A stretch of 64,000 nt of DNA, taken from a plasmid. Position numbers and translations under genes: made by a program. The notes under the pieces are model-generated. The model saw only the letters and a program-made list of their open reading frames with translations, made no database searches and was not told the origin of the DNA. Positions 43,417 through 63,879 of this stretch are shown here, one piece after another (the first letter of the stretch is position 1; each line of letters starts with the position of its first letter). Where the stretch lies: the NCBI RefSeq assembly GCF_054482595.1, contig NZ_JBTHVH010000001.1; one strand, 5' to 3'.

Positions 43417-43725
43417 TCAATATACGATCTGGTCTGCATGATCACCAAAATCATCGTCGTCGTCCTCATCGCCACCATCTACTGCTGGCCAATCAACAAA
43501 CCAGCCAGCGTAAAGATGCAGCGTTCGGAGAACATCACTTGCGGGAGCATCAAGGGTGTTAACGAATCCCATATAGCTATTGGGATTTGCCCCAGCTATG
43601 GCTTCAGCGATCATGTCCTCGGTAATGTCACCGGAGATAATGCTTAAACGCCCGGAAACTTCTTCATTATCATCAAATTCGATAATGGCATCTCCGCCTA
43701 ATGGCGCTGCGATTTTAATCTGCAT
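43417..43725 (-). CDS. hxr: last gene of dar operon (hxr position), acidic 102-aa protein
   Basis: Position; name from memory. Confidence 0.35.
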   Translation of the reverse strand: MQIKIAAPLGGDAIIEFDDNEEVSGRLSIISGDITEDMIAEAIAGANPNSYMGFVNTLDAPASDVLRTLHLYAGWFVDWPAVDGGDEDDDDDFGDHADQIVY

Positions 43726-46702
43726 TATTTAGCTCCTTTGCCACACCTAATAACAGTTCCAGCAATCCGTCACCATTCATCAGTGATGCGGCAGCGGCCT
43801 CTTTGTCATGATACAACTGAAGAGCCATAGAGAATACTTCCGTTGCTGACGTTTTGGAAATAGTCGGTGATTTCTGCCGAATTTTCCCGGTGTTACTTAC
43901 TGAGGCTGGCGGGTATACCTTCGCCATATAAATATTACTCAATCGAGATCTGAAGCACCATTCAGGCTTGCCACGCCCACCGATATTAACGAAAGATGGC
44001 TTATCCCCTTCAACATTGGCCTTCAGGAATGACCGGGCTTTCTCTAACAAACCAGGGTTACTGTACTCAAGATGATGACCCAGCTCGTGCCACAGTGCAC
44101 TTGCATTTTCATCGTTCAAATTGACAGCAACAACACCATTAAGATTTGCATATGCCCTTCCCTGGTGGTGAACCACCTTTGATAAGGTCGATATTTTCCC
44201 GCCGGTCAGGCGATAAATATCAGCAAGTTCCTTGCGCAGGTCTATCCCACCACTCTGTCCAGCGCGGGCTTCTTCCACTTCTTCCGTGATAAAAGAGTCG
44301 GCCCACTCAAGAGCTTTTTCTTCAGATACGGATGAGTTGGCTATCGCACTATTCATGGCAGATAACACTTTCTCGTGGACCGAACCCATACTTCGCTGAT
44401 TCATTTGCCAGCGTGTCTGCGGGTTATATGAGAATCGCTTAAGTAGTTGGTCAAGATGCTCAAGTTCTTCTTCGCTGACATACTTTTTAGCCTCACCAAT
44501 AATGCCGGGGAGAATATTGCCGTTAGGATTAAACGCTCGCGAAAGGAAGAGTTTCAGCGCCCCCATGCCCTCCGATGCTTCAATATCACCAATAACACGG
44601 TTAACAATGGCCGCACTCTTCGGATTAGCATCCGCCAACGCTCTGGCTACGATTTGCAGGGACGATACGACCTCACGCTGCATATCAGTCCTGATCTCAT
44701 CAATAAACTCTGGCGTTATGCCGTGCTCTTTAAGGATATCCCTGCCTTCCGCCGTTACCCCATCGATATCACCGACATGTTTATTAACCTGACTTTGCAA
44801 TGCCTTAAATGCCTTCAGAATTCCACGGGCATCATCAGCTTTACTAACGGCCTTCCTGAATGCTGGCAAGAAGTCAGAGTTAACCTCATTTTGTTGATCG
44901 GCCCACTGAATGGAGGCTTCTTTCATCTCGTCCAGAGTCAGATCACCCAACGCGGTATGGTCTGTGAATATGAGCGACAACCTCTGAACCATTTCTGCCA
45001 ATGGTGATGCCGAATGCGCCGCGCTAAGGAATGCTTTCACCCTGGTTGGGCGAATGGAAAACCAGTCAATAGCTGGTGGCATATCTCCGTTTTTTATCGC
45101 CTGCGCTATCTCGTCAAAGCCATCGCGCCCAAGGGAGGATGCGTGATTTAACAAGCCGCGAAGTAACGAATTGCTGATACCGAATAATCGGCACCATTTT
45201 TTCACGTCGGCAACAGGCATTCGAACAAAATGCGCAAGCACTTGTACAAGCTGTTCATCCTGGGGATCTGTGCGGGAAAGCAGCCTGATCAGATGAATAA
45301 TGTCTTTGATGCCGGATGCCCGATGTAATAGCAAACTGGTATACGGAGCAACACCGTTGTAACTACCGCCGGAAACGGACTCGAAAAGACCGCCGGATAT
45401 CCCTTGCATGCCTTCGTTTTCCAGTTCCTGAGACACCTGGCGAAGGATATCCTGTAACGACACATCACCACCGCCAAACATATCCCCCAGCGCCTGGCCC
45501 TGGTGCTGTAACTCATCATTGATACGTTGAGCCATCAATTTAAAGGCGGTGGCCATACGCTTCGCGCTACGGTTATTCGCGACGATGAACAACGCGAGCG
45601 CTTTCACTTCCGGGGCTGTTTCGCTGAACATATCCCCCTGAGCAATAACATCGATAATATGTTGGCCTGACTCCTTCGATTGCCTTACCAGGTCTACCGC
45701 ATCTTTCAATGCCGCCAGCGCCTTTTTATCGAGACTATCCGCTGTCTCAATACCATCAACAATAGTTGTCACAGCCTGCTTGTGCGCTTCTCCTGATAAA
45801 GCCTGCATCTGGACAAAATCATTGGCTGCCGCATTAAGCGCCGTCAGAACATTACGCATATCCGGATCAGGTTCTTCTGCAACCATCCTTACCAGGCGCG
45901 CATCCTTATATGCCTTGGCAAAGATCGCGTTTTGTATACGGTCTACAAGTTGCCGTGTTGGTCGCCCATCTTCCGTTACAAGGCCAGCAGCCTGTGTGGC
46001 ACCAACTTGCGTCATGAATCCGCGAATAAACGCGTCATTACTGCGGCTAAGCAGATCTCCGCTTTCTGATGGGTTAAACAGCGTCATCATCGCCGGAGTT
46101 ATGCTGTCAGCATCAACAAAAGCCTTTTCACTGGCTGCCATTTCCTGAAGATCAGAAATATTTGAGTCCTTGGCAAACTGAACGCGGTCAACCTTAGTTA
46201 ACCGGCGGCGCACCAGTACCGGAGCCGCCATTGATTCAACCTTTTCAGGTCGTATGCCGAATTCGGTCGCATGATCAATCAGGTACTCACGATACCGATC
46301 CGCATTGCCGTCCTGATAGGCTTTGATGATCCCCATGGTCCGTCCATTACCTGACTCAACGGCATTGTCCTCACCAATTATCGGCGCGCCATGGCTGGAT
46401 AAACCGGAATCGGTAAGCTGGGCAGGACGCAAATCCTTGGATATCTGGTTGACCTGAAGAAGACTGGATGCGCGGGTCCGGTCGCGCGGCTGAAGTTCCT
46501 GGGGATAGTCAGGGTTAATTTTCCCGTCCAGAGTATTGGATACCAAAAGAGCTGAGGCATCGACGATATCAAACGCTGTTTTTACCTCGTCTCCCTTCGC
46601 TGTCACCACATACGAAACCCGCCCGTAATTGGGCAGGTTTTTTAGCAGCTCGATCAGCGTTTCTATGCTGGTGGCCATTACCACCTGATCGCTTAAGCTC
46701 AT
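43715..46702 (-). CDS. ddrB: DdrB (995 aa)
   Basis: Large ORF downstream of ddrA-darA. Confidence 0.55.
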   Translation of the reverse strand: MSLSDQVVMATSIETLIELLKNLPNYGRVSYVVTAKGDEVKTAFDIVDASALLVSNTLDGKINPDYPQELQPRDRTRASSLLQVNQISKDLRPAQLTDSGLSSHGAPIIGEDNAVESGNGRTMGIIKAYQDGNADRYREYLIDHATEFGIRPEKVESMAAPVLVRRRLTKVDRVQFAKDSNISDLQEMAASEKAFVDADSITPAMMTLFNPSESGDLLSRSNDAFIRGFMTQVGATQAAGLVTEDGRPTRQLVDRIQNAIFAKAYKDARLVRMVAEEPDPDMRNVLTALNAAANDFVQMQALSGEAHKQAVTTIVDGIETADSLDKKALAALKDAVDLVRQSKESGQHIIDVIAQGDMFSETAPEVKALALFIVANNRSAKRMATAFKLMAQRINDELQHQGQALGDMFGGGDVSLQDILRQVSQELENEGMQGISGGLFESVSGGSYNGVAPYTSLLLHRASGIKDIIHLIRLLSRTDPQDEQLVQVLAHFVRMPVADVKKWCRLFGISNSLLRGLLNHASSLGRDGFDEIAQAIKNGDMPPAIDWFSIRPTRVKAFLSAAHSASPLAEMVQRLSLIFTDHTALGDLTLDEMKEASIQWADQQNEVNSDFLPAFRKAVSKADDARGILKAFKALQSQVNKHVGDIDGVTAEGRDILKEHGITPEFIDEIRTDMQREVVSSLQIVARALADANPKSAAIVNRVIGDIEASEGMGALKLFLSRAFNPNGNILPGIIGEAKKYVSEEELEHLDQLLKRFSYNPQTRWQMNQRSMGSVHEKVLSAMNSAIANSSVSEEKALEWADSFITEEVEEARAGQSGGIDLRKELADIYRLTGGKISTLSKVVHHQGRAYANLNGVVAVNLNDENASALWHELGHHLEYSNPGLLEKARSFLKANVEGDKPSFVNIGGRGKPEWCFRSRLSNIYMAKVYPPASVSNTGKIRQKSPTISKTSATEVFSMALQLYHDKEAAAASLMNGDGLLELLLGVAKELNNAD

Positions 46703-51140: not shown

Positions 51141-51551
51141 CTACGCCTCCGGGAACGCTGGCCAATTGACATCTGGTGCAGTGCTGGTATCCGTTGCGGT
51201 CACCGCATCGATATAATCCAGCACAGCGTTAAGACGGGTGGTTTCAGCCTGCGTAAGATTCCGCCCGGCCTGTAATTTCAGTTGAATAAGACTAATGGAA
51301 GCCATTGCGGTATCAATCAGCGACTGTTTTTTCTGTTCAGCGTCAGCTACCAGTTCATCATGAGAACGTTCCGGAGTGGGTGGCGCAGTAAATCCCCCGT
51401 CTGAATACACCCAGCCGATTCCGGGCTGCTCACTGATATCAGAAATATTAATGAGCTGCTGATTATCCGGCACTGTGAATTCAGCCTCGCCATCCCAGAC
51501 AATGACATTCACAACCATCCCATTTTCAATAACTGCATATGATGTATTCAT
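51141..51551 (-). CDS. tail fibre assembly/chaperone protein (U-like)
   Basis: ATG at 51551 overlaps S stop (TAATG); ends ...NWPAFPEA. Confidence 0.6.
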   Translation of the reverse strand: MNTSYAVIENGMVVNVIVWDGEAEFTVPDNQQLINISDISEQPGIGWVYSDGGFTAPPTPERSHDELVADAEQKKQSLIDTAMASISLIQLKLQAGRNLTQAETTRLNAVLDYIDAVTATDTSTAPDVNWPAFPEA

Positions 51552-54500
51552 TATGCAAACTCCTCGATAATACAAATCCCTGCAGCGCCTTTCCCGCCCG
51601 TCATACTGGTTCCGCTATAACCGGCATCGTATGCACCACCGCCGCCCGAACCATATGCCCGACCGATAACGCCACCGCCAGCGCCTGCGCGACCACCGCC
51701 CCCCCAGAACGATGATCCTCCTTCACCACTGACGCTGATATTTCCGGACTGACCGTCACCTCCATGCCCACCAATAATGCGGACATCACCAGTATTCGGC
51801 GCGCCTCCATTACCACCGTTCGTGTTTGTGACTCCTACTTTCCCGCCGCCTTCACCGCCAGGGGCTATTACCGTTCCGAACGAGCTATCACCGCCCTTGA
51901 GGCCGTTCGTCGCACCAACACCGCCGCCCCCACCTGCGCCGATAGTGACTGGATAACTATTCTGTGTCGGGGTCATTATTGAAATTATTGTCCCACCGGC
52001 CCCACCGCCAGCACCGAAAAACGTCTCGTTATTGGATGTAGCCTGGCAGCCACCACCTCCGCCACCGCCGCCCGTAATTGTGACCCTGATTCGTTTTGTT
52101 CCTGGCGTCGGGGTATACGTACCTGATGAAGTGAAAACCCGGGTATTCACCAAACGCCCAACATATCCGCTTGAATCGCTCAGGCCAAGGTTAGCAGCAG
52201 TTAAAGTAATATTTGCAGAACCATCAAACTTAACACCGTTGATAGTGCGTGCAGTCTGTAGTTTCGTTGCGGTTGCGGCATTACCGGTAGTGCTCTGATT
52301 ACCTGCTTTATTCACGCCCGGCAGGTCGATATTGGCACTACCATCGAATGACACTCCGCCTATTGTGCGTGCTGTTTGCAGTTTTGTTGCAGTTGCAGCA
52401 TTGCCGGTAGTGCTCTGATTACCTGTTTTATTCACGCCCGGCAGGTCGATATTGGCACTACCATCAAATGACACCCCGCCGATTGTGCGTACTGTTTGCA
52501 GTTTCGTAGCGGTTGCAGCATTGCCGTTCAAACTACCATTGATGCCGCCAGTAACATTGAGTCCATTACCGATCGTAACAGTACCATTGGCATTGTTAAT
52601 GATAAGCGGCCTTAAATTATTATAGGTTCCCAGGCTGTTACCCGAATTGGTCAACATGAAATATGTGTTTGAACCATCGTTTCGGATAAAGAATCCGTAG
52701 TTTCCGTAGGCAATGCGCAGACCATTCGCCGATTTTGAAATGATCTCACCAGTAGCCGTTAAACCGCCGTTGAGATTTCCTCCGGTTATTGGTAATGCGC
52801 CGACATCCGTGGCGGTCGGTTTAATGTGCGAACTGTAAATTACATATACAGTTCCATCTGTCAGGCCTGTTGGTTTATTCGCTGTATAAGATGGTGATGT
52901 ATGAATCGTTACGCTGGCGTTACTGGTATAATCCCACTGAATATTAACACGTGTGGTGTAATTACCTATTTCAACATAAACATCATAGGTATCACCGGAT
53001 GTATTCACCCATGCAAAATTAGTAAATCCAACCGATGTCCGTCGCCATAACGCACCAGTAAGACCTTTTGGATTCCCATTTCCCGCACGAAGAACAAGTT
53101 CAGATATACCAGCCTGCATAGGGGAGTTAACATTATATCCAGAACCACCAATCAGGCTTATGTAAACCACGGAACTGGACTGTGGCATGGTTACAGTTGC
53201 CAGCTTGAACCATCCAGTACCACCACTAAAAGACATTGTTGTTGAGTTGATCGTGCCTATAGACCTTGGAGTTAGCTCAATGTTTTTAGAACCGTCAAAC
53301 AACACCCCATTTATAGTTCTAGCGGTTTGTAACTTGGTCGCTGTCGCTGCATTACCGGATGTATTCTGATTACCCGCAACGTTAACACCAGGTAAATTAA
53401 TATTCGCAGTACCATCAAAGCTAACTCCGCCGATAGTTCTTGCCGTCTGTAGTTTTGTAGCAGTTGCCGCATTGCCAGTTGTATTCTGATTGCCAGTGGC
53501 ATTCACACCAGGAATGGAGTCCCTTGATGTATATACCTGCGCCCACGCTGACCATGCCGCATCAGTGTGATCTCTTCGGGAGCGAATGAAAACCGGCGCA
53601 TGTGCACCGCTCGTACCACTCCAGCCAATAAGCAACTCGCCCTCACCAGCAGCACTCGCACCTTTCATGTGCAATACGTTGCCATACGCGGTCGGGTAGC
53701 TATTGTTGTACGCCTCATACATCTGCAATCCAGTAGAAGCACCTTGTGTTGTATCGGTGAGCGCAGTAACACGCCCTCTGGACGCAATTGTTGGTATCGA
53801 AATGTTCGCAGAACCATCAAACTTAACACCGTTGATTGTGCGTGCTGTTTGCAGTTTTGTTGCAGTTGCGGCATTACCGGTAGTGCTCTGATTACCTGCT
53901 TTATTCACGCCCGGCAGGTCGATATTGGCACTACCATCAAATGACACCCCGCCGATTGTGCGTACTGTTTGCAGTTTCGTAGCGGTTGCAGCATTGCCGG
54001 TAGTGCTCTGATTACCTGCTTTATTCACGCCCGGCAGGTCGATATTGGCACTACCATCGAACGACACTCCGCCGATTGTGCGTGCTGTTTGCAGTTTTGT
54101 GGCGGTGGATGCATTACCTGTCAAAGATCCACTAAGAGCCACGGCACTAAGAGACTTAACACTTACATCCTGACCCCATCCGGAAACAACAACCTGACTC
54201 CACGCTGTCCAGTTTCCATTAACAACAAAGCGAACGTATATACGTTTTGTGTCGCTGTTAATCAGCGTTTGCATGTTCGCATAATCTGATCCCGTAGTCT
54301 TACGAATCGACTCTACACGAACCAAAAAGTTACCGCTTACGCCGTCAGGCTTATTGGTAATATTTGCACCACCTGCGACAGTTTTGCATTGATAGTATTT
54401 AACGGATCCAGCTTCTGTATTAGCAATAATCAAGTCGTTTAAATCAATAGCCCGGCCGTCAATGGCTTCCGGCTCGATGGCTCCTGCTATCCCGGCACTG

Positions 54501-55978
54501 AATGTAGCAGCGGCTGAAAACGCTGTCTTACCTTTGAAAGTCTGTTGAGAACTCCAGGTATTAGCTGTGCTCAACAGGGGGATCTTTTCGCCGCTGGTTC
54601 CGATTTCTCTTAAACCAAGGTATTGGATAACAGCCAGTGTGCTTGTTTTAGCCAGGATATCGCGACCGACTGACGTTAAATCAGTCTGGGAAACAGTGTC
54701 TGTACCGGTAAAGTACGGCAATTTATTTGCGCCTGTCGCAAGACCAGCAAGCGCGGTTAAAGTTGCATCCAGAGGCTGTTTGCCTGCCAGCGCATTTGTC
54801 ATTGTTGTCGCAAAGTTCGGGTCATTGCCCAGTGCTGCTGCAAGCTCATTCAGGGTATCAAGAGCTTCAGGTGATGAGCCGACCAATGCAGAGATAGCAG
54901 CTCTTACATAAGCGGTCGTAGCAATCTGCGTGTTATTCGTACCCTGTGCAGCGGTAGGCGCAGTAGGTATTCCCGTTAATGCAGGACTTGCTAAAGGAGC
55001 TTTAAGAGCCAGAGCATTGTTGATAGTTGTGCTGAAATTCGGGTCGTTATTGATCGCAGCAGCTATTTCTTTAAGCGTATCCAGTGTGCCAGGTGCACCG
55101 TTGATAAGTGCCGTTACAGCTGCCTTAACAAAGGCTGTATTTGCGATCTGCGTGCTGTTTGTACCTTGCGCTGCCGTCGGCGCGGTTGGCGTTCCTGTCA
55201 GACTCGGGCTTTCTATTGGCGCTTTGGTATCAGCCAGCTCTTTTACAGACTTAACGGCTTTAGGGGTAGCCGCCATTGTTTCGCTGTCGCTGTTAGTTGC
55301 GCTACTGAGCTGAACTAATCCCTTTTGTGTTGTGCTTGCATCCTGCGCCGTATACTTGCTTTTAGCCAGATCGTAGGCTTTTTTAACCGCCAGCGAACTT
55401 GCAGCGACATCACTTCTGGTACTGGTTACAGAGTCGGAAATTTCAATGCCTATCGCGAGATCGATGCGGTCGGATACATCTATCATTTCCTTAGTAATAG
55501 CAGATACGCCAGCAGGGATATTCACCGTACAAACAAGCAGTTCCCCATCTCCTAACTGATATGAATCGGTATAGGTTCTGGCAACAAATTCAGCCGCATG
55601 AATATGTGACGCGGTATTAACCTGATAAGAATCTTCTCCAAGGAGGTATCTTCCCTTCAGCACAATTGCATATTTCTTACCTGCGCTAAGTGCAAGAGAA
55701 ATATCCTTACGCTGCTGAATAGTTACCTGGTAGAATTCACCAATATTCACTGACGCCGCGCCAGCGGTTTTATCACCATCCACTGAGGTGATTAACAGGT
55801 TCATCCCACCGCCAGGCTTAGGAAAAAAACCGGCATAAAATCCAGGGTCAACAATTCCCCTGAATTTTCGGTTTAGCGCGGCTGACAGATATGGTTCGTG
55901 GTATTGCACATCAGCCACCAGAGCCAACGACTCGGGTGATGGGTAAGTAACCGATGTGACAACTGTAACGTCATTCAT
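51551..55978 (-). CDS. tail fibre protein S (1475 aa) with phage-fibre repeats and glycine-rich C-terminus
   Basis: ATG at 55978 with AAGGA SD (track ORF extends to 56065); about 8 copies of GNAATATKLQTARTIGGVSFDGSANIDLPGVN. Confidence 0.8.
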   Translation of the reverse strand: MNDVTVVTSVTYPSPESLALVADVQYHEPYLSAALNRKFRGIVDPGFYAGFFPKPGGGMNLLITSVDGDKTAGAASVNIGEFYQVTIQQRKDISLALSAGKKYAIVLKGRYLLGEDSYQVNTASHIHAAEFVARTYTDSYQLGDGELLVCTVNIPAGVSAITKEMIDVSDRIDLAIGIEISDSVTSTRSDVAASSLAVKKAYDLAKSKYTAQDASTTQKGLVQLSSATNSDSETMAATPKAVKSVKELADTKAPIESPSLTGTPTAPTAAQGTNSTQIANTAFVKAAVTALINGAPGTLDTLKEIAAAINNDPNFSTTINNALALKAPLASPALTGIPTAPTAAQGTNNTQIATTAYVRAAISALVGSSPEALDTLNELAAALGNDPNFATTMTNALAGKQPLDATLTALAGLATGANKLPYFTGTDTVSQTDLTSVGRDILAKTSTLAVIQYLGLREIGTSGEKIPLLSTANTWSSQQTFKGKTAFSAAATFSAGIAGAIEPEAIDGRAIDLNDLIIANTEAGSVKYYQCKTVAGGANITNKPDGVSGNFLVRVESIRKTTGSDYANMQTLINSDTKRIYVRFVVNGNWTAWSQVVVSGWGQDVSVKSLSAVALSGSLTGNASTATKLQTARTIGGVSFDGSANIDLPGVNKAGNQSTTGNAATATKLQTVRTIGGVSFDGSANIDLPGVNKAGNQSTTGNAATATKLQTARTINGVKFDGSANISIPTIASRGRVTALTDTTQGASTGLQMYEAYNNSYPTAYGNVLHMKGASAAGEGELLIGWSGTSGAHAPVFIRSRRDHTDAAWSAWAQVYTSRDSIPGVNATGNQNTTGNAATATKLQTARTIGGVSFDGTANINLPGVNVAGNQNTSGNAATATKLQTARTINGVLFDGSKNIELTPRSIGTINSTTMSFSGGTGWFKLATVTMPQSSSVVYISLIGGSGYNVNSPMQAGISELVLRAGNGNPKGLTGALWRRTSVGFTNFAWVNTSGDTYDVYVEIGNYTTRVNIQWDYTSNASVTIHTSPSYTANKPTGLTDGTVYVIYSSHIKPTATDVGALPITGGNLNGGLTATGEIISKSANGLRIAYGNYGFFIRNDGSNTYFMLTNSGNSLGTYNNLRPLIINNANGTVTIGNGLNVTGGINGSLNGNAATATKLQTVRTIGGVSFDGSANIDLPGVNKTGNQSTTGNAATATKLQTARTIGGVSFDGSANIDLPGVNKAGNQSTTGNAATATKLQTARTINGVKFDGSANITLTAANLGLSDSSGYVGRLVNTRVFTSSGTYTPTPGTKRIRVTITGGGGGGGGCQATSNNETFFGAGGGAGGTIISIMTPTQNSYPVTIGAGGGGGVGATNGLKGGDSSFGTVIAPGGEGGGKVGVTNTNGGNGGAPNTGDVRIIGGHGGDGQSGNISVSGEGGSSFWGGGGRAGAGGGVIGRAYGSGGGGAYDAGYSGTSMTGGKGAAGICIIEEFA
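52170..54130. repeat. three clusters of tandem about 129-bp coding repeats inside S (52180-52560, 53280-53520, 53800-54120)
   Basis: Near-identical DNA blocks read directly. Confidence 0.6.
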
Positions 55979-55989
55979 CAAGCATATCC

Positions 55990-56424
55990 TTATGCTGTAG
56001 TCGTGTTTATGGCCATAACTGCGGTATATGTTTTGCCCACATACAGCGAGTCTTCCTGGACACAAATAATGGCGATTGGCTTGTTCTCGTTATCCAGAAC
56101 AACCAGAGTGTTGAATGGGTAGTTTTTCCCTTTCTGCAACTGGCTTTGATCAAGGTCCATTCGGACAGTAATTATCCCGCCTGAGTAGGTTGGGACGAGG
56201 TTGATGGTGCAAAATTTACTGGTCAGTTCTGCCAGATCGAAAGCCTTTGGCAGTTCTCCAATCTCATAAGTGCCATCTCCTTTCTTAGTAACCAGTGAAC
56301 TGGTACCGAAAACGGCCTTGCTGATTAAAAATCGAGAGCCTTTGTTAATGGACGATTCAGCGCGCCGCTGATAGTAATAGTCCAACAACTGACTCTTATA
56401 GAGGTTTGTTGAGACGTCAGACAT
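55990..56424 (-). CDS. R-like tail protein (144 aa)
   Basis: Position upstream of S. Confidence 0.45.
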   Translation of the reverse strand: MSDVSTNLYKSQLLDYYYQRRAESSINKGSRFLISKAVFGTSSLVTKKGDGTYEIGELPKAFDLAELTSKFCTINLVPTYSGGIITVRMDLDQSQLQKGKNYPFNTLVVLDNENKPIAIICVQEDSLYVGKTYTAVMAINTTTA

Positions 56425-56502: not shown

Positions 56503-57342
56503 TCAGGCGTCGCTATCCAGCAACAAATCATCTGCGCGTGTGCGATCAAACGTAGGTGTCGCTTTCACAATAGTGCCACCAGGCGTTGCGGTGATCGGGG
56601 CGCTAATCGACGTAACTCCAGTAAGCGAAGTTGTATCCGAAGTTTCAAACCAGCAGTACGCTTTTTCGGTATCAGAAATCTCGTTCAAAGTGATCATGTC
56701 GGCCTGTTCATTCACAACAACCGACAAATAGAGCGTAAGCCCATCAAACACTATATGCAGTGGCAGTAGAGGCTTTACGAACTGATTAAACTTTCTGAGA
56801 ATTTCTTCTGTAATTGCGGACTGATCTATCGTGCCAGTAATACCCATTGTCCGGGCCAGGTCGTTTATGGGAATACTGATCATCCCTCTGGAAGTCAGAA
56901 ACATCTCACCGAATGTGCCGCCGGTAGTTTCCAGTGTGCTTTCTGGTATTAGAACTGTGCCATAGGGATGACGTTCAAGGTCCACCGGTGCATATATCGG
57001 ATCCCATAAAACAGAAATACCATTAAATTCGCGGTAAATTGTCTGGTTTATAGGGCGTTCAGTCCCCTTAAAGTGAATCTCATCAAGCCGCTGTTGTAAC
57101 AACATCGGAACGGAAGATGAGTTTGAGGTTCTGATAGTAAAGAACTGGCCAAGTTCATTTGTCCTGGTCTCCAGATCCTCCTTGCTCATGGAAAAAATAG
57201 ACTTCCGGTTGGTAATTCGCTCCAACCATGGGTCAACAAAGGTGTCCATCATTGACTGAACCAAATCAGCCAATGATTTATAGAGCAATGACTTTTGCTT
57301 AGCTGATGTAAGCCGATTATTAAACCAGGAACGTTGCATCAC
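56503..57342 (-). CDS. baseplate protein (gene 16-like)
   Basis: Position. Confidence 0.45.
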   Translation of the reverse strand: MMQRSWFNNRLTSAKQKSLLYKSLADLVQSMMDTFVDPWLERITNRKSIFSMSKEDLETRTNELGQFFTIRTSNSSSVPMLLQQRLDEIHFKGTERPINQTIYREFNGISVLWDPIYAPVDLERHPYGTVLIPESTLETTGGTFGEMFLTSRGMISIPINDLARTMGITGTIDQSAITEEILRKFNQFVKPLLPLHIVFDGLTLYLSVVVNEQADMITLNEISDTEKAYCWFETSDTTSLTGVTSISAPITATPGGTIVKATPTFDRTRADDLLLDSDA

Positions 57343-58772
57343 TCCTCCTCATACGAAATATTAAAGGTGGAGTTTTCTGTATCCAGATAAACGAAATCGT
57401 AAAAGCCGTTGGACTCATTCCACTCGACAAATTCCAGATAAAAGTCGCGGAAATAACCCAGCGTTTCGATAAATGCCCAAACGTCTTTTTTCTTGATCAG
57501 GATGTACTTGCCGACACCGTTCGGATCAAAGAAATTTGAGTCGCGCCCAAATTTTGTTTCCAGTGCCGACTTCAACTCATCAGTCACGTTCTCAATAGTC
57601 AGGCTTGCCGATATCCGCCCGGTGATGGTTATCTTAAATGGTAGTTTTCTGACCTCTTTATAAGAGAATTTCTTGTTCAGTTCATTCGGTACCTTCTTAA
57701 AGGCAGTCAGGATCATTTCTTCAAGCTCTGACTGGCTTTTATTTGGATGCCATCCTGAAATAAATATCTTATTGATATTCTGAACATTATAAGCACCATC
57801 TAATTTCTCTTGCTGGCCTTCGCCCCATGCCTTTACCCAGGACAGCCCCGGGATGTTACGAACCAGAAAATACGTATAGTCCCCGCCCCATACGACCTGA
57901 TCATCATAGGCAAGGTAATATTGTGCACGGTTACGTGTGATCTCCGTTGTTTCAGCATCGGTACCTGCGGTTATAGGTGTCGTTGTCTTAACTGAAATCA
58001 AATTAGCTAAATTAGCCGCAGAATCGACAGGCGTCAGGTTTTGGCCAGCAACCAGGGTTATATCGCCGTTGGTGCACCATACCTTAAGCGTAATTGTCGA
58101 ACCTTCTGGCGGTATTTGCCCAATTAGCCCATCGCCGAATCGAACCCCCAACTGCTCGGATGGTTTATAAAACTCAACGTAGACCTGGCTTTTACTACCG
58201 GCTAACCGGAACATAGTGCTGGAAGACCACTGCGTGGTCTTACCATCGGTCGTCACGAATACTTCCAGCTTATAGCAGACAGCAGTAAGAGCCTTTGATA
58301 ACACGACTTCCAGAAATTCTTTGGCTGCCGTAACGGTATATGTCACCTCCTGGATTTCCAACTGTGCCACTTCTACCGTACCGGTGCCGTCAACCAACCT
58401 GCATACATCCATAGTCATGTAAGGGTACTGGTCGTCAGATATTAAAGGCATGTTTTTGGGGATTACCGCTGGGGCATCTTCACTTGTGGCGGTGATCTCA
58501 ATCATCCCCGATGACGGTGTTGGCTTGGTACCAACGTAACTATTCGTTTCTGCCGCTGCCAGGATAGAGGAACGCCGCGTCGCGGTCGATATAAAGCCTT
58601 CAGCCAGCGCCGCATCGGCATACTGAAAGCACCTGTAGACAATCTGGGTAATAAACAATGTCAGCATCGAGACAAATTGAGAGCCGACAAACTTCGACCA
58701 GAATGAATCTTTCTCGACAAGCTCTTCAAACTCTGCACGAATACTGTCTTTAGTCGGTGTTGTTTTACTCAT
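57339..58772 (-). CDS. baseplate protein BplA-like
   Basis: 477 aa, position. Confidence 0.5.
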   Translation of the reverse strand: MSKTTPTKDSIRAEFEELVEKDSFWSKFVGSQFVSMLTLFITQIVYRCFQYADAALAEGFISTATRRSSILAAAETNSYVGTKPTPSSGMIEITATSEDAPAVIPKNMPLISDDQYPYMTMDVCRLVDGTGTVEVAQLEIQEVTYTVTAAKEFLEVVLSKALTAVCYKLEVFVTTDGKTTQWSSSTMFRLAGSKSQVYVEFYKPSEQLGVRFGDGLIGQIPPEGSTITLKVWCTNGDITLVAGQNLTPVDSAANLANLISVKTTTPITAGTDAETTEITRNRAQYYLAYDDQVVWGGDYTYFLVRNIPGLSWVKAWGEGQQEKLDGAYNVQNINKIFISGWHPNKSQSELEEMILTAFKKVPNELNKKFSYKEVRKLPFKITITGRISASLTIENVTDELKSALETKFGRDSNFFDPNGVGKYILIKKKDVWAFIETLGYFRDFYLEFVEWNESNGFYDFVYLDTENSTFNISYEEE

Positions 58773-59128
58773 AGCACCACGTCCTGTGTGATAGTTATAT
58801 CCCTGATACGAATGGATATTTTCAACTTATCAAAAGCATCTCCCTCGGCTACTGACAAGCCAGAAATCGGTATGTCAGGTAAATCTACCGTCAGTTTTTG
58901 CAACAGCATTGCCTCAACCGCAATTTGAACATGCGACAAGTTGGTCGGTTCGTGTTTAAACTGCGGTAAAACATTGCCCCATGACGGATCTCCGTATACC
59001 TCACCCTGATAAGTGTTTAGCCACTCATATAAACGAGCGCCCCAGGCCTCCTCCTGGGACTCATACGTTTTTACGCCGGATAACTCCAGCGTCAGCAAAG
59101 GATCAATTTCGTTATTGTTGGCCATCAA
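58769..59128 (-). CDS. PmgA-like morphogenetic protein
   Basis: Position. Confidence 0.4.
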   Translation of the reverse strand: MMANNNEIDPLLTLELSGVKTYESQEEAWGARLYEWLNTYQGEVYGDPSWGNVLPQFKHEPTNLSHVQIAVEAMLLQKLTVDLPDIPISGLSVAEGDAFDKLKISIRIRDITITQDVVL

Positions 59129-62100
59129 TCAACTCTCGCGTAGTCATTCATCAACGGATCATCAATTGACAGTGGTACCGTGCGCATAACGCCCGGCTGA
59201 GGCGTGCTGACCTTTACGACAGTTCCCTGGCCTTTCGCCGAGTCTTTGGTGTGCTCTTCAATCCTGGCAAGCAATGAGGTCATCTGCGCAAACAGCCGCT
59301 TCGTTTCACCATCAAGTGAAACGGTATTATCAGCCAACTGCATTGTCGGCTTGGCACCGGAACCGCCAAGGTCACTAATAACCTGCCCGTCTATCTGCAT
59401 ACGACCGGTTGGTTGCTGCAAATCGTTGGCGGCAGTCGTCACCTTGGACGTGGAGGCTGGTTCAGGCGCATTATTTTTCCGCATCCCCGGCGAGTTGCGG
59501 AGTTTATCGAATAGTCCATCAATCCCCATTTGTGCGCCGAGTTGGTCAAAGTAACTTGAGTTGCTGGCCACCGGACGCGCCTCTTCAACTGGCATCGGAA
59601 TATCAACATACACATTGCCAGCTGCTGTTGCGGTCCCCTTCCCTCGTGCACGTTCTTCGAGCGTTCCCTGAACGACTTCCCGACGCATACCCCGGCCATT
59701 CATGAATTTGTTGACCAGATCGTTAACGCCAACAGCATTGCCGATTTTGTCTACCAGACCGCCTTTCTCAAACGGGCTATCACCAGGGGTAAACGCCAGG
59801 CCAGTAGACTGATCGATAACAGCGTTATCAGGCAGTGGTCCCCTCACTCCATATTGCGCCCCACCCTGTGCTCCTGCTCCAGGTGTATAGATTTCACCAC
59901 CTAAATAGCGAGCACGATGAGTATTGACCTTGATCGCGTACTCACGGTTTTCTTTCGATAAGTCACCTGTGCCTTTTTTCCACTTATTGATAGTGCCAAA
60001 CCCAGCGTTATATGCAGTGATGGCCTCGTTTAAGTCTCCATTGGCTTGCTTCAGATACTTGCTCATGAGAAGAGCCGCAGCTTCTGCCGATTTCACAGGA
60101 TCAAACGATTCACCTTCAGCTAAGCCAGTCTCTTCACGAGCAATCCCCGTGAACTGAAACATTCCCAGAGCACCGGTTTGGGATTTTGCATACGGATTAC
60201 CACCAGATTCAGTTGCAGCAATCGCGTAAAGAGTGCCTTCTGGAAGACCATATTTATTCTCTAGTTCAGCAAAATACGGAGCCAACTTATCGAGATTTGC
60301 CTTACCTTCAGATCCAAGACTTCCGACTTTTACATCCAAGCGGCCATTGTTGTAGGTATCCGCAGCTTTCTGAATGTCACTCCTGGTGCCAGTGGTATTA
60401 AGCGACGATGATGACGAGCTATTTTGACCAATAGCTTTATCAATTTTCTGCAACGCGCTATTGCCCGTTTCTACGGCATTTGCATTGATAATCTGATTCG
60501 CAGTTTCTTTAACTGTTTTATTGCTATCTTTCGCCGTGTCCAGTGCCGCATTTATCACGCGGGTAACAATATTAGTCTGTTTGGCATCGGATTCAGTTTT
60601 AGAATCAGATGTCTCCTGGTGGCTATTAACCGGAGCTTTTAACTCTGGAGTGATTTCTTTGGCATTAGCCTCGCTATTAACCGGAGCTTTTAACTGTGGA
60701 GCGATTTCTTTCGCATTAGCCTCGCTATTAACCGGAGCTTTTAACTCTGGAGTGATTTCTTTCGCATTAGCCTCGCCGATCGGATTGGGTATTTTTGATA
60801 CAATCATTGCCGCAGGGGTATTTTTAACGGCATCAACCGCTGCATCTAATGCTTTACCAGGTAAATTTTTAACCCCATCCCAAATATTACCAGCCGCCTC
60901 TTTAATGTGTTTCCCTGGGTTCTTAATGAAATCAATTGCACTATCAATTGCATCACTGAAAACCTGTTTCAGGTTATCAACAGTAAAGAAGTCTTTGATG
61001 GCATCCAGCTTTTCAAGCAGCTTATTAGATGTATCGCTAAACCATGCTGAAACAGCATCACCAATCTTTGCTGTGTAATCTTCGAACTTGGTAGAAATGG
61101 TGTCGCCAAGGTTAGAAATATATGTTTCTAAGTTGGTAATCCCACTATCAATGGCCTGGGCAATACTTTCCGTCGAAAATGATTGCAACATATTGCCGAT
61201 ATCCTCAAATCCAAGTGATTTGAGAACCTCACCAATGGCGCTGCTAATACCAGATACCAGTCCCCCCATATCAAGAACATTGGCTAACGTATAAGCGGCT
61301 TTTTGCTGGAATGATGGATCTTGTCCTGATTTAAGCCCAAACGCTCGACGTTGCGCTTCTGTATCATTCCAACCGGTTACCGCATCATAAATACCTCCAG
61401 CCACTGTGCCGACTAAGGGAATTGCGCGTAACGCCCCTTTACCAACTGCCTTTAATCCAAGTTTACCTGCTGCCCGGGCAGCCAAATCTCCACCTTCATG
61501 GGCGATAGTCTTCTTGCCACCACCGCGTAGCATTCCTACAAGTTTCTTTGCCCCCAGAGCGCCAAAAGCGAGTGCTCCAGCTTTTTTCAGCATGCCACGC
61601 CCCATTAACAACGACGCGACGCCACCGGCCCCCTTCCCTAACAGGCTAAATAGTTTGGACAGCAAGCCGCCCTTCTTTTTCCCGGTGTTTTTGGCTATCT
61701 GATCAAGGGCGCTGAGAATCTTGTCATTGCCCTCTTTAATTTCGCTGGTCTGCTCCTGAAGTTCCTGAACTGTCCGTTTTTGGGTGTTAACCTGAACGAC
61801 ATCGGCACTATTTTGCGATTTACGCCTAAAAAAACCTTTTCTACGGCTGTTATCGTCATTGCCACGAATCACATCGGCAATAGACTTTCTGGCACCATTA
61901 AGCGATCCACCAACTTCTTTTGATATCCCGCCAAGCTCCTTCCCTGCTGCCCACAATGGACCAGCAACGGCATAACCTAACGCATCAACGGCACGAGTCT
62001 CTGAAGGGTTACCTATGCCTTCAGCTACTTTTGACAGTTTTTTTAATAAACCTGATTCAGCATTTAGACGCTCATCATCCTCTTTACGCCTGGCCTTTTC

Positions 62101-62916
62101 AGCACGTTCAGCACGGGCATCTTCCGCTGCGGCCTTACTCCCTGACTTTCCAATAAAACGACCACGCGCATCGCGTTGGTTTTGGCTTTTTTGCGCACCG
62201 CCTTTTTGATCGAACATTTCGCGAGCGTGTTCGGCTGCTTCGGTCCGTTGTGCCTTTATATCCTCTGGTATAGCCTTCCTGCGTCGTTTTTTACCCTTTG
62301 GTGTAGTTGATTTGGCCTGCTGTTCCTGTTGAGCAATGCCCTCCTGAACTACACGAGAAACGTCCCCTAAATTAAGCCGTTTCATTGCGTCAACAATAGG
62401 GTCTACTGATGGCGCATTGGCCACAAAGTCTGGCCGGGAATTTTCGATTGTTCGATTTAATGCCGACACACTGCGAGATACTGGGTCAACCGTTGCAACG
62501 CGTTCCCCTTTCAAATCACGAGCGAGTTTAACCGTTTCTAACCGCTGTGCTTTAACATCCTCTGTTATTGCCTCTCTTCGTCTATTTGGGGGATTGTGCG
62601 CTGTTGGTGCAGCCTGCTGTGCACGGTTAGTGACTTTGTCCTCCCGTATACGAGAAACGTCCCCTAAATTAAGCCGTTTTATTGCGTCAACAATAGGGTC
62701 CACTGATGGCGCATTGGTCACAAAGTCAGGACGTGAATTTTCGATTGTGCGATTTAATGCCGACACACTGCGAGAGACAGGATCAACAGTTGCAACTCGT
62801 TCCCCTTTCAAATCTTCAACAGCTTCCCGAATACCTGCAAGCTCTTCCAGCTCTTTCGCGCTGGCGGTTTCAACTGTCCTTATAACATCGTCAATATTGG
62901 CGTTTTTTCTTTCCAT
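59125..62916 (-). CDS. sit: Sit, structural injection transglycosylase (tape-measure-like, SLT domain)
   Basis: 1263 aa; SLT motif AIAATESGGNPYAKSQTGALGMFQF. Confidence 0.85.
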   Translation of the reverse strand: MERKNANIDDVIRTVETASAKELEELAGIREAVEDLKGERVATVDPVSRSVSALNRTIENSRPDFVTNAPSVDPIVDAIKRLNLGDVSRIREDKVTNRAQQAAPTAHNPPNRRREAITEDVKAQRLETVKLARDLKGERVATVDPVSRSVSALNRTIENSRPDFVANAPSVDPIVDAMKRLNLGDVSRVVQEGIAQQEQQAKSTTPKGKKRRRKAIPEDIKAQRTEAAEHAREMFDQKGGAQKSQNQRDARGRFIGKSGSKAAAEDARAERAEKARRKEDDERLNAESGLLKKLSKVAEGIGNPSETRAVDALGYAVAGPLWAAGKELGGISKEVGGSLNGARKSIADVIRGNDDNSRRKGFFRRKSQNSADVVQVNTQKRTVQELQEQTSEIKEGNDKILSALDQIAKNTGKKKGGLLSKLFSLLGKGAGGVASLLMGRGMLKKAGALAFGALGAKKLVGMLRGGGKKTIAHEGGDLAARAAGKLGLKAVGKGALRAIPLVGTVAGGIYDAVTGWNDTEAQRRAFGLKSGQDPSFQQKAAYTLANVLDMGGLVSGISSAIGEVLKSLGFEDIGNMLQSFSTESIAQAIDSGITNLETYISNLGDTISTKFEDYTAKIGDAVSAWFSDTSNKLLEKLDAIKDFFTVDNLKQVFSDAIDSAIDFIKNPGKHIKEAAGNIWDGVKNLPGKALDAAVDAVKNTPAAMIVSKIPNPIGEANAKEITPELKAPVNSEANAKEIAPQLKAPVNSEANAKEITPELKAPVNSHQETSDSKTESDAKQTNIVTRVINAALDTAKDSNKTVKETANQIINANAVETGNSALQKIDKAIGQNSSSSSSLNTTGTRSDIQKAADTYNNGRLDVKVGSLGSEGKANLDKLAPYFAELENKYGLPEGTLYAIAATESGGNPYAKSQTGALGMFQFTGIAREETGLAEGESFDPVKSAEAAALLMSKYLKQANGDLNEAITAYNAGFGTINKWKKGTGDLSKENREYAIKVNTHRARYLGGEIYTPGAGAQGGAQYGVRGPLPDNAVIDQSTGLAFTPGDSPFEKGGLVDKIGNAVGVNDLVNKFMNGRGMRREVVQGTLEERARGKGTATAAGNVYVDIPMPVEEARPVASNSSYFDQLGAQMGIDGLFDKLRNSPGMRKNNAPEPASTSKVTTAANDLQQPTGRMQIDGQVISDLGGSGAKPTMQLADNTVSLDGETKRLFAQMTSLLARIEEHTKDSAKGQGTVVKVSTPQPGVMRTVPLSIDDPLMNDYARVD

Positions 62917-62997
62917 GATCTTATCGCCTACCGTTTCGGTTTAAGTTTTTCTTCCAGTTTCTCCAACAGGAAAAACGCATAGGATTCAGTAAGCCTT

Positions 62998-63879
62998 TCA
63001 GCGTCCTGAATCGGTATACCCCCATACAAAACCAGGTTGGACACTAAGGTCTGATAGCTTTTCAATCCCCACCTGTGGAATGAAGTCGGTAGCCCGAAAG
63101 GGCACCCACAGACGGGTATATGCACCCTCTGTGGACTCCTTTTTATCCTGATTTGGGCATTTATGCGGCGGGAGACGAAGACGCATTTCACCTTTATCGA
63201 TGTAGCACGGTAAACCATGTTCGAGCTTTTCATGAGCCAGTCGGATGTGTGCCGCCAGCTTCATAAATTCAGTATCAATGGCCATCCGTTTAATCGTTTC
63301 ATAACGACGCTCAGCCTGATCTTCACGAGTACCGCTAACATCGTTATAAAGCTCACACTGATAAGCGAATTCCCAAAAACGCAAATCAACGATCGCTTCT
63401 TTGAATTCCGCGTCGTCTTCAGCTGGCAATGCTGCACGGCGCATCTCCAGCATTTCCATTGCCCAACCATCAAGCGGCACGATACGCCATTGATAAGGTA
63501 CTCCCTCTACAGACACCTCAATATCGTCAATGAAAGGTTCCACTTCCAGGACCTGGATATCTTCAGCCAGAGCATTCATATCGCAATCGTAATAATGCTC
63601 TTTACCGCAATGTTTACAGGTGTAGGTGAATGTCTCGACCGGTGTTTCACGGGAGCCGGTAAATATCCACCATAACGCGGTAATCCGGTCCTGCGCCGTC
63701 CATGTCAGGGGATCATGTTTCGCGGGTTCAGCCAGCAAGGCTTTTAAATACGCCGTTGTCTGTTGTTCTTGTTCCTCCGGTGTTATCGAGTTGAAACGCA
63801 TCGCATCAGCAATATTTGGCTGACGGAACTGGATCAATTCAGTTGGCCGCGATGGTAGCGGGAAAAGGGGTAAAAGCAT
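62998..63879 (-). CDS. PmgB-like protein
   Basis: Position upstream of sit. Confidence 0.4.
   Translation of the reverse strand: MLLPLFPLPSRPTELIQFRQPNIADAMRFNSITPEEQEQQTTAYLKALLAEPAKHDPLTWTAQDRITALWWIFTGSRETPVETFTYTCKHCGKEHYYDCDMNALAEDIQVLEVEPFIDDIEVSVEGVPYQWRIVPLDGWAMEMLEMRRAALPAEDDAEFKEAIVDLRFWEFAYQCELYNDVSGTREDQAERRYETIKRMAIDTEFMKLAAHIRLAHEKLEHGLPCYIDKGEMRLRLPPHKCPNQDKKESTEGAYTRLWVPFRATDFIPQVGIEKLSDLSVQPGFVWGYTDSGR

Follow-up and report, generated by a model that had tools for sequence, protein, structure and literature searches.

The sit locus and its internal repeats

The window, a 64,000-nucleotide stretch of plasmid DNA, carries on its minus strand the gene sit (59125-62916), which encodes a tail tape measure protein that includes a lytic transglycosylase (SLT) domain. 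The list of open reading frames and the translation verified that the reading frame is intact and uninterrupted over 1263 amino acids. The gene is preceded by pmgB (62998-63879, minus strand) and followed by pmgA (58769-59128, minus strand) and bplA (57339-58772, minus strand), and this pmgB-sit-pmgA-bplA order is that of P1 and places sit within the tail module, as expected of a tape measure gene. The protein matches phrog_2533 along its full length and is 96% identical to Sit of P1, 98% to that of P7 (96-98% outside indels for these two) and 93% to that of phi456; full-length identity and the SLT domain assign it to the Sit orthologue group. Sit of P1, whose name stands for structural injection transglycosylase, is virion-associated according to LC-MS/MS of virions, and the role of tape measure was assigned to it (PMC9024508). 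The same role is listed in cryo-EM work in which Sit itself was not resolved and low-resolution density was found at the baseplate centre (PMC12810830). Based on this literature assignment, the SLT domain and the position between pmgB and the baseplate genes, sit is identified here as the tail tape measure gene of a P1-like phage-plasmid.

The N-terminal 34 codons (62815-62916, minus strand) encode a conserved capping helix that precedes the repeats, is invariant in the window, P1, P7 and phi456 and has a motif that is still recognisable in distant homologues. AlphaFold2 modeling of the entire protein yielded a mean pLDDT of 58 with about half of the residues below 50, and predicted a helix at residues 8-38 (pLDDT 87-91) and further helices through residues 261-427 and 500-708. 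A glycine-rich hydrophobic stretch is apparent in the sequence at residues 412-506, and the region around residues 460-620 is matched most often in distant homologues. The SLT domain (residues 881-990; 59947-60276, minus strand) was detected with Pfam PF01464 (E = 1.8e-27), is modeled with pLDDT values above 95 and is without the 10-residue loop found in other alleles behind residue 912 (TLTRSPNGKL in P1). Two antisense open reading frames that overlap the repeats (62417-62944 and 60521-61078, plus strand) yielded no PHROG match, were dropped as candidate genes and were treated as chance reading frames. Promoter-like and terminator-like sites were not more frequent between 58900 and 63300 than in shuffled sequences.

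Directly behind the capping helix, two modules of 99 codons are arranged in tandem. Module A (residues 35-133; 62518-62814, minus strand) is an extra copy absent from P1 and P7 and consists of a conserved 55-residue head and an A-type tail of 44 residues. Module B (residues 134-232; 62221-62517, minus strand) is judged to be the orthologue of the one module present in P1 and P7, because it shares 93-94% nucleotide identity with that module versus 78% for module A. Module A in turn shares 98% identity with its counterparts in phi456 and pEC15-3. A repeat search paired 62306-62517 with 62603-62814 (spacing 297 nt, 84% identity across 212 nt), and the two whole modules are 78% identical over 297 nt. 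The first-pass annotation had proposed a tandem duplication of about 99 codons at 62361-62520 and 62657-62815; the duplication is real and in frame, and these intervals lie in the right place but each covers only part of a unit. The module head contains an ..IVxAMKxLNLG.. motif, which is kept in homologues of 46-53% identity, and is adjoined by basic patches (KKRRRK / NRRRE) visible in the sequence, and no family or domain match was obtained over the module.

The second repeat is formed by three tandem 17-codon units (residues 715-765; 60622-60774, minus strand; EANAKEITPELKAPVNS / EANAKEIAPQLKAPVNS / EANAKEITPELKAPVNS). Tandem Repeats Finder reported 60622-60776 with a period of 51, 3.0 copies, 95% matches and a score of 289, and in the phase of the protein the units comprise residues 715-731 (60724-60774), 732-748 (60673-60723) and 749-765 (60622-60672), all on the minus strand. 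Three such tandem repeats had been noticed before, at 60640-60790, which is shifted by approximately 16 nt. Within each 51-nt unit there is a small hairpin that was picked up as a terminator-like site on the antisense strand, probably by coincidence.

Both repeats exceed chance expectation by a wide margin. Within sit, exact direct repeats are up to 39 nt long; 200 codon shuffles gave a longest repeat of 11.7 nt on average and 16 nt at most, and the remaining repeat families in the 5-kb region reach only 16-22 nt. As plain self-BLASTP of Sit returned the diagonal alone, a windowed and masked protein self-comparison was employed instead, which detected the 99-residue and the 17-residue families only.

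Length variants of sit in P1-like plasmids

The Sit proteins of P1 and P7, which are encoded at the same place between pmgB and pmgA/bplA and have the N-terminal helix, the glycine-rich hydrophobic region and the SLT domain in common with the window, are 1140 and 1130 residues long. They differ in that each contains one module and one unit, while the window protein contains two modules and three units and is missing the 10-residue SLT loop of P1. The length balance is exact (1263 = 1140 + 99 + 34 - 10, a net gain of 123 residues), so that the duplications, together with the missing loop, fully account for the extra length. This bears out the earlier suggestion that they are its source, as well as the length of about 1140 residues given there for P1 Sit, and the comparison with P1 confirmed that the repeats are not identically present there.

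The exact 1263-residue protein is on record from 97 contigs, and p91 of E. coli 127 (CP023381.1) carries a sit gene of 3792 nt, the same as in the window. Many IncY P1-like plasmids and phi456 (OR339795) carry the same A+B module duplication in sit, with 98-99.7% identity; phi456 Sit differs in that it has only one unit, which is diverged, and in that its central region has also diverged and contains an insertion of eight residues. Module numbers were surveyed in evenly spaced samples of 60 rows rather than as full counts, and were scored by the length of the matched span, since the coverage threshold of the 700-nt query was useless for this purpose (single-module records still reach 81-82% coverage). 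Of the 60 sampled PLSDB records, 17 (approximately 28% of the sampled P1-like plasmids) had two modules; among the 60 records sampled from complete E. coli genomes there were 24 with two modules (approximately 40%) and one with three. A three-module allele is represented by CP195583.1, with an intact open reading frame of approximately 1322 residues, and an allele with a single module and two units by AP027786.1. The best 120 Sit homologues all have two modules with one to five units; a query of the protein database with P7 Sit is uninformative for single-module alleles, as two-module proteins outrank them when both modules score. To look for a lineage with a lone A-type module, which could have donated module A, PLSDB was queried with a synthetic A-only allele; the best match was 92.6% and none attained 95%, so that such an allele is absent from the records sampled there. 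The sit gene of CP195583.1 is split in the PGAP annotation, and the sit annotation of pEC15-3 is also frameshifted or split.

Copy number thus differs among otherwise near-identical alleles while the reading frame is kept, as in a VNTR-like locus. The duplications are common alleles of a copy-number polymorphism that spans one to three modules and one to five units among P1-like alleles, and are not private to the element in the window. The papers searched described neither length variants of sit nor the tail lengths that P1-like plasmids or any of these variants produce.

Age of the duplication and selection on the module

The tails of modules A and B have diverged with a dS of 1.06 and a dN of 0.47, compared to a dS of 0.059 for the rest of sit between the window and P1. 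Based on this tail dS of about 1 versus 0.06 and on the 78% nucleotide identity, the module pair is judged to be old, and its duplication to be ancient relative to the split of P1, P7 and the window. The heads show a dS of 0.28 and a dN of only 0.017 (dN/dS of approximately 0.06), values which indicate that the 55-residue heads are under purifying selection. The strength of this selection suggests a specific function of the head besides spacing.

Identity and module number do not run in parallel, as P7 with one module is 98% identical to the window protein and phi456 with two modules 93%, which is a mosaic pattern. The middle module of the three-module allele of pEC15-3 is a hybrid of a B-type head and an A-type tail, which demonstrates unequal crossover between modules. 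The copy-number variants of sit are best explained by unequal homologous recombination or slippage between the repeat copies, with recombination shuffling the alleles among plasmids. In the allele of the window, the second 99-residue module is located directly after the conserved N-terminal helix, and the proline-containing 17-residue unit is present in three copies rather than one.

Predicted consequences for the tail

The tail of P1 is 2450 Å long and consists of 53 rings with a rise of 40 Å (PMC10304247). The longer Sit protein would be expected to yield a tail approximately 200 Å (five 40-Å rings, or about 10%) longer than the 53 rings of P1, and this lengthening is considered the most likely effect of the expansions. 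The residue-to-length rule behind such an estimate is uncalibrated for P1, since the tube of approximately 2100 Å exceeds the 1710 Å that 1140 residues would span at 1.5 Å each. Insertions and deletions in the tape measure proteins gpH of lambda and gp29 of T4 scale the length of the tail, and in-frame internal duplications and deletions of the tape measure gene, engineered or natural, link these systems, like TP901-1, to sit; their effect on tail length was measured there and is only predicted for sit. Sit of the P1 type further differs in that it contains an SLT domain and is part of a contractile tail that is ultra-long. In TP901-1, tape measure insertions and deletions likewise scale tail length (PMC5099701). 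As phi456 is a plaque-forming myovirus (PMC10967188), a phage with a two-module allele can be infectious. Units are also duplicated in tandem and lost in tape measure proteins with 11-residue (or 11/18-residue) aromatic repeats, whose copy numbers differ between related phages (Belcaid et al. 2011, PMC3271669). Sit does not belong to this class, given its periods of 17 and 99 residues, the missing Trp/Phe-marked periodicity and the lack of any aromatic residue in the 17-residue unit. In general terms this kind of variation is already known, in that internal segments of tape measure genes are duplicated and lost in the course of evolution, and tails become longer when duplications are engineered.

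A somewhat unlikely alternative is that both repeats are neutral linker slack, situated in disordered or extended parts of Sit that take no part in measuring. Copy number would then drift through recombination and slippage and leave tail length unaffected; at most, the SLT domain of the ejected protein would differ in its reach or flexibility. Such a role is consistent with the side-by-side occurrence of many copy-number states and with the AlphaFold2 model, in which the module heads (residues 40-73 and 133-171) are coil with pLDDT below 50 and form no classical long ruler helix, and the 17-residue array (residues 706-781) is coil with pLDDT of about 30; as both repeats fall into low-confidence coil, their share in the ruler is uncertain. 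The 17-residue unit moreover contains two prolines and no hydrophobic core. It follows the helical ruler region and precedes the SLT domain, with the SLT-proximal helices immediately downstream. However, the low dN/dS of the module heads argues that these are not a free linker, and an all-helical Sit would not span the P1 tube, so that extended segments must contribute to its length. Neutral slack is also at odds with the established proportional effect of such changes in lambda gpH and T4 gp29. Non-terminal insertions and deletions in TP901-1 changed tail length proportionally as well, whatever their sequence (PMC5099701).

It was also considered that the conserved head serves as a docking site, so that its duplication would change how many binding sites Sit offers and not how long the ruler is; candidate partners would be the putative tape measure chaperone PmgB, the terminator or tube top, or the DNA end via the basic patches. 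The heads of A and B are nearly identical as proteins despite their dS while the tails diverged freely, and both the conserved head motif and the patches are compatible with binding. Nevertheless, this dosage effect is very unlikely, as no partner was identified, the module matches no family or domain, the AlphaFold2 confidence in this region is too low for a fold search, and P1 and the outgroups function with one copy. An expansion or collapse of the repeats by the assembler, for which repeats are a classic source and of which the disrupted sit annotations of pEC15-3 and CP195583.1 might be a sign, is extremely improbable, because modules that differ by 22% in nucleotides are not confusable in assembly, the 153-nt array is short enough to lie within one read and the identical protein has been recovered on 97 contigs, and also from closed plasmids that independent laboratories sequenced.

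The preferred reading therefore combines two in-frame tandem expansions, a standing and recombination-driven polymorphism and a longer tail as its inferred outcome, and a probability of roughly 0.6 is assigned to it as a whole. Of its elements, the repeat anatomy, the polymorphism, the recombination signature and the selection pattern were demonstrated in this analysis, and the role of Sit as tape measure comes from the literature. A further proposal, that tail length is kept polymorphic by selection, for instance through the thickness of the host envelope or capsule, with modules (one to three) and units (one to five) providing steps of approximately 15 nm and 2.5 nm on a 245-nm tail and the 55-residue head acting as a discrete docking motif and not just as a spacer, is regarded as quite unlikely. 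For annotation, the findings mean that multi-module sit alleles are split or mislabeled by some pipelines. P1 serves as a model phage, and its contractile tail of 53 rings is unusually long. Alleles of Sit that form a natural series from approximately 1130 to 1322 residues are already present in public E. coli plasmids. This series could be used to calibrate the number of residues per ring and to show which segments of Sit measure.

Repeat families within sit

The tail tape measure gene sit occupies 59125-62916 on the minus strand as a single long open reading frame of 1263 amino acids with an ATG start, which holds both families of internal repeats. Megablast matched it, with gaps, to the sit genes of P1, P7 and further Punavirus records at 96-98% identity, and the neighbouring genes follow the P1 order (pmgB upstream, pmgA and bplA downstream). 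An SLT lytic transglycosylase domain was identified at residues 881-990 (Pfam, E = 1.8e-27). Sit is accepted in the literature as the tape measure protein of P1. It was detected in virions by LC-MS/MS, its size suits this role and pmgB was proposed to encode its chaperone (PMC9024508); cryo-EM work lists it as the tape measure protein and could not resolve it (PMC12810830). The BplA baseplate-wedge homologue WP_029487598.1, located downstream of pmgA in pEC15-3 (L004), CP195583.1 (L008) and two further RefSeq P1-like plasmids (L005 and L006), is named 'bleomycin hydrolase' in RefSeq, which is probably a misleading annotation. A 1504-aa reading frame at 51551-56065 (minus strand) would, if it is a tail-fibre gene, be much longer than the one for the P1 S protein (~105 kDa).

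A repeat search revealed a direct repeat (62306-62517 and 62603-62814) whose copies are 84% identical over 212 nt and offset by exactly 297 nt, and a family of three copies spaced by 51 nt at 60622-60776, for which Tandem Repeats Finder returned a period of 51, 3.0 copies, 95% matches and a score of 289. All remaining repeat families of the 5-kb region measure 16-22 nt. Read from the minus strand, the former represents two 99-codon modules near the N-terminus, module A (62518-62814, residues 35-133) and module B (62221-62517, residues 134-232), and the latter three 17-residue units (60622-60774, residues 715-765; EANAKEITPELKAPVNS, EANAKEIAPQLKAPVNS, EANAKEITPELKAPVNS). Just these two families emerged from a windowed self-comparison of the protein. 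The longest exact repeat within sit is 39 nt, compared with a maximum of 16 nt in 200 codon shuffles, and the repeats are far above chance level. With both families in one reading frame and beyond the shuffle expectation, the duplications proposed in the first-pass annotation are real; their places were right, although each 99-codon unit was covered only in part and the short array was set about 16 nt off. Units 1 and 3 of this array contain a hairpin with a 6-bp stem (CCGGAG...CTCTGG; plus strand 60630-60648 and 60732-60750), which a scan classed as terminator-like for the antisense strand. The hairpin, while probably incidental, could favour slippage.

Sit of the window, P1, P7 and phi456 was compared in a four-way protein alignment. 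The 1140-aa Sit of P1 and the 1130-aa Sit of P7 each contain one B-type module and one 17-residue unit, to which the window's protein adds module A and two further units. Among the four proteins, only that of P1 carries a 10-residue loop in its SLT domain (TLTRSPNGKL). The earlier suggestion that the repeats explain the length in excess of P1 Sit holds to the residue (1263 = 1140 + 99 + 34 - 10), P1 having one copy of each repeat. The same pair of modules A and B is found in phi456 Sit (1231 aa), whose central hydrophobic and helical region (about residues 430-720 of the alignment) is far more diverged than its ends and includes an 8-residue insertion, GKLATKGL. As judged from the alignment, phi456 sit is a mosaic gene.

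Copy-number polymorphism among P1-like plasmids

Database sequences indicate that the sit repeats are a population polymorphism and not private to the window. The exact 1263-aa protein is on record from 97 contigs in the protein collection, and sit of plasmid p91 of E. coli 127 (CP023381.1) is 3792 nt long and matches at 99.7% identity. All of the best 120 protein matches (1224-1307 aa) contain two modules, together with one to five units in many unit-variant arrays. The modules were counted in rows taken at even intervals from the ranked matches to a 5' query of 700 nt, so that the counts are sample estimates: two modules were present in 17 of 60 sampled rows from PLSDB (479 matching records) and one in the rest, and complete E. 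coli genomes (471 records) yielded one module in 35, two in 24 and three in one of 60 rows. The polymorphisms of modules and units are independent, because AP027786.1 has a single module and yet two units (1147 aa). An indel of the SLT loop (after residue 912, window 60180/60181) also segregates independently of the repeat copy numbers; many plasmids have the form PLTRSPDGKL (consensus P/TLTRSPD/NGKL), and the window and P7 are without the loop.

Three modules were found in CP195583.1 (4399-8364 of L008, NZ_CP195583.1), where the frame is open over about 1322 codons and RefSeq/PGAP splits sit into a partial pseudogene and a shorter CDS. They were also found in pEC15-3 (699-4783 of L004, NZ_CP060921.1), where sit is frameshifted downstream of the modules (about 2072-2213 of L004), owing either to a sequencing error or to a real pseudogene. 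Inactivation of sit in a P1-like plasmid is exemplified by pSvP1 (NZ_MN510446.1), in which the match spans 5026 nt due to an inserted IS element, annotated in PLSDB with an IS3-family transposase and described as IS2 (PMC6906374).

Ancestry of the modules and exchange between them

A module is made up of a 55-codon head, near-identical in A and B, and a strongly diverged 44-codon module tail (VVQEGIAQQEQQAKSTTPKGKKRRRKAIPEDIKAQRTEAAEHAR in B, IREDKVTNRAQQAAPTAHNPPNRRREAITEDVKAQRLETVKLAR in A). Nei-Gojobori estimates between A and B gave dS 0.28 and dN 0.017 for the heads and dS 1.06 and dN 0.47 for the module tails; for the rest of sit, window versus P1, they were 0.059 and 0.005. By these values, A and B diverged long before the lineages of the window, P1 and P7 separated; alternatively, an unsampled diverged lineage was the source of module A. 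A search of PLSDB with a synthetic A-only sequence detected no allele with a single A-type module (best match 92.6%). One module is probably the ancestral state for the wider family, because the distant Sit homologues P0122 and P0123 (53% and 46% identity) and the database protein P0270 each show a single module-like region and, in it, a single IVAAMKKLNLG motif.

The middle module of pEC15-3 joins a B-type head to an A-type module tail, as expected if module B of one copy and module A of a second had undergone unequal crossover in the conserved head. P1 and P7 have a patchy single module, A-like over about the first 70 nt and B-like beyond, and module A of pEC15-3 contains a B-like patch. The modules have thus evidently undergone repeated exchange or gene conversion. 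Overall Sit identity to the window is 98% for P7 with its one module and 93% for phi456 with two; this uncoupling of the rest of sit from the module state points to recombination among alleles. Exact stretches of up to 39 nt are common to the 51-nt units, enough for slippage or unequal exchange. The 1009-aa database protein P0124 starts inside an A-type module tail, continues through module B and about 110 more Sit residues and from there on gives a full-length match to phrog_2299 (a 995-aa family); it is apparently the product of a deletion or fusion in some P1-like plasmid. A window reading frame at 43715-46702 (minus strand, 995 aa) equals that family in length.

Predicted structure and tail length

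AlphaFold2 was run on Sit residues 1-1200 with a 64-sequence alignment (mean pLDDT 58). The model contains an N-terminal helix (residues 8-38, pLDDT 87-91), the folded SLT domain (870-1000, above 95) and helical segments at 261-427 and 500-708 (about 28-93 per 10-residue block, lowest at 420-510). The module heads (40-73 and 133-171) are modelled as coil with pLDDT below 50, short helices follow at 75-80 and 173-180 (mostly below 50), and each module tail ends in an 18-residue helix (116-133 and 219-236, about 50-70). The region with the 17-residue array (706-781) is coil at about 30. The model assigns neither repeat to a long ruler helix of the classical kind; low pLDDT is expected for a monomeric tape measure protein and is no proof of disorder inside the tube.

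Tail length scales with tape measure length in lambda (gpH) and T4 (gp29). An N-terminal tape measure duplication in TP901-1 likewise gave a proportionally longer tail and kept the titre (PMC5099701). The P1 tail measures 2450 Å, with 53 rings at a 40-Å rise (PMC10304247), or comprises 52 BplB rings plus initiator rings (PMC12810830). We give a probability of roughly 55-60% to the reading that the window's allele specifies a tail 8-10% longer than that of P1: the 133 added residues (module A and two units) would lengthen the ruler and add five to six rings. At the canonical 1.5 Å per residue they amount to about 200 Å or five rings, and at P1's own ratio (about 2100 Å/1140 aa = 1.84 Å per residue) to about 245 Å or six. 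A tail of 120 nm was given in the 2022 proteomics paper, backing a fit of 750 helical residues (PMC9024508); set against 2450 Å from cryo-EM (PMC10304247), this means that the residue-per-length argument for Sit needs revisiting. Since phi456 with its two modules forms plaques (PMC10967188), the duplication is compatible with infectivity.

It is less probable, though worth weighing, that the repeats add neutral slack to linker segments and leave tail length unchanged. At 1.5 Å per residue, 1140 residues span 1710 Å, less than the P1 tube. Some of Sit must thus be stretched beyond helical geometry, an argument for coil segments counting toward length too. A docking function of the conserved head, with its dosage being what matters, is improbable; a dN/dS of about 0.06 with appreciable dS does imply that both head copies are constrained at the protein level. 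An assembly artefact was rejected, as modules A and B differ at 22% of their nucleotides, the 17-residue array spans only 153 nt and the allele recurs across many closed plasmids.

Internal duplication and loss of units are well known for tape measure genes (PMC3271669, PMC5099701), and the sit duplications, real and correctly read in the first-pass annotation, are ordinary in kind. With lengths of 17 and 99 residues and a non-aromatic composition, the sit repeats are not members of the described class of 11/18-residue aromatic repeats. Their sequences are already abundant in public databases, and no description of Sit length alleles was found in the literature searched. The sit alleles represent a ready-made natural allelic series to calibrate the ruler of P1's ultra-long contractile tail.
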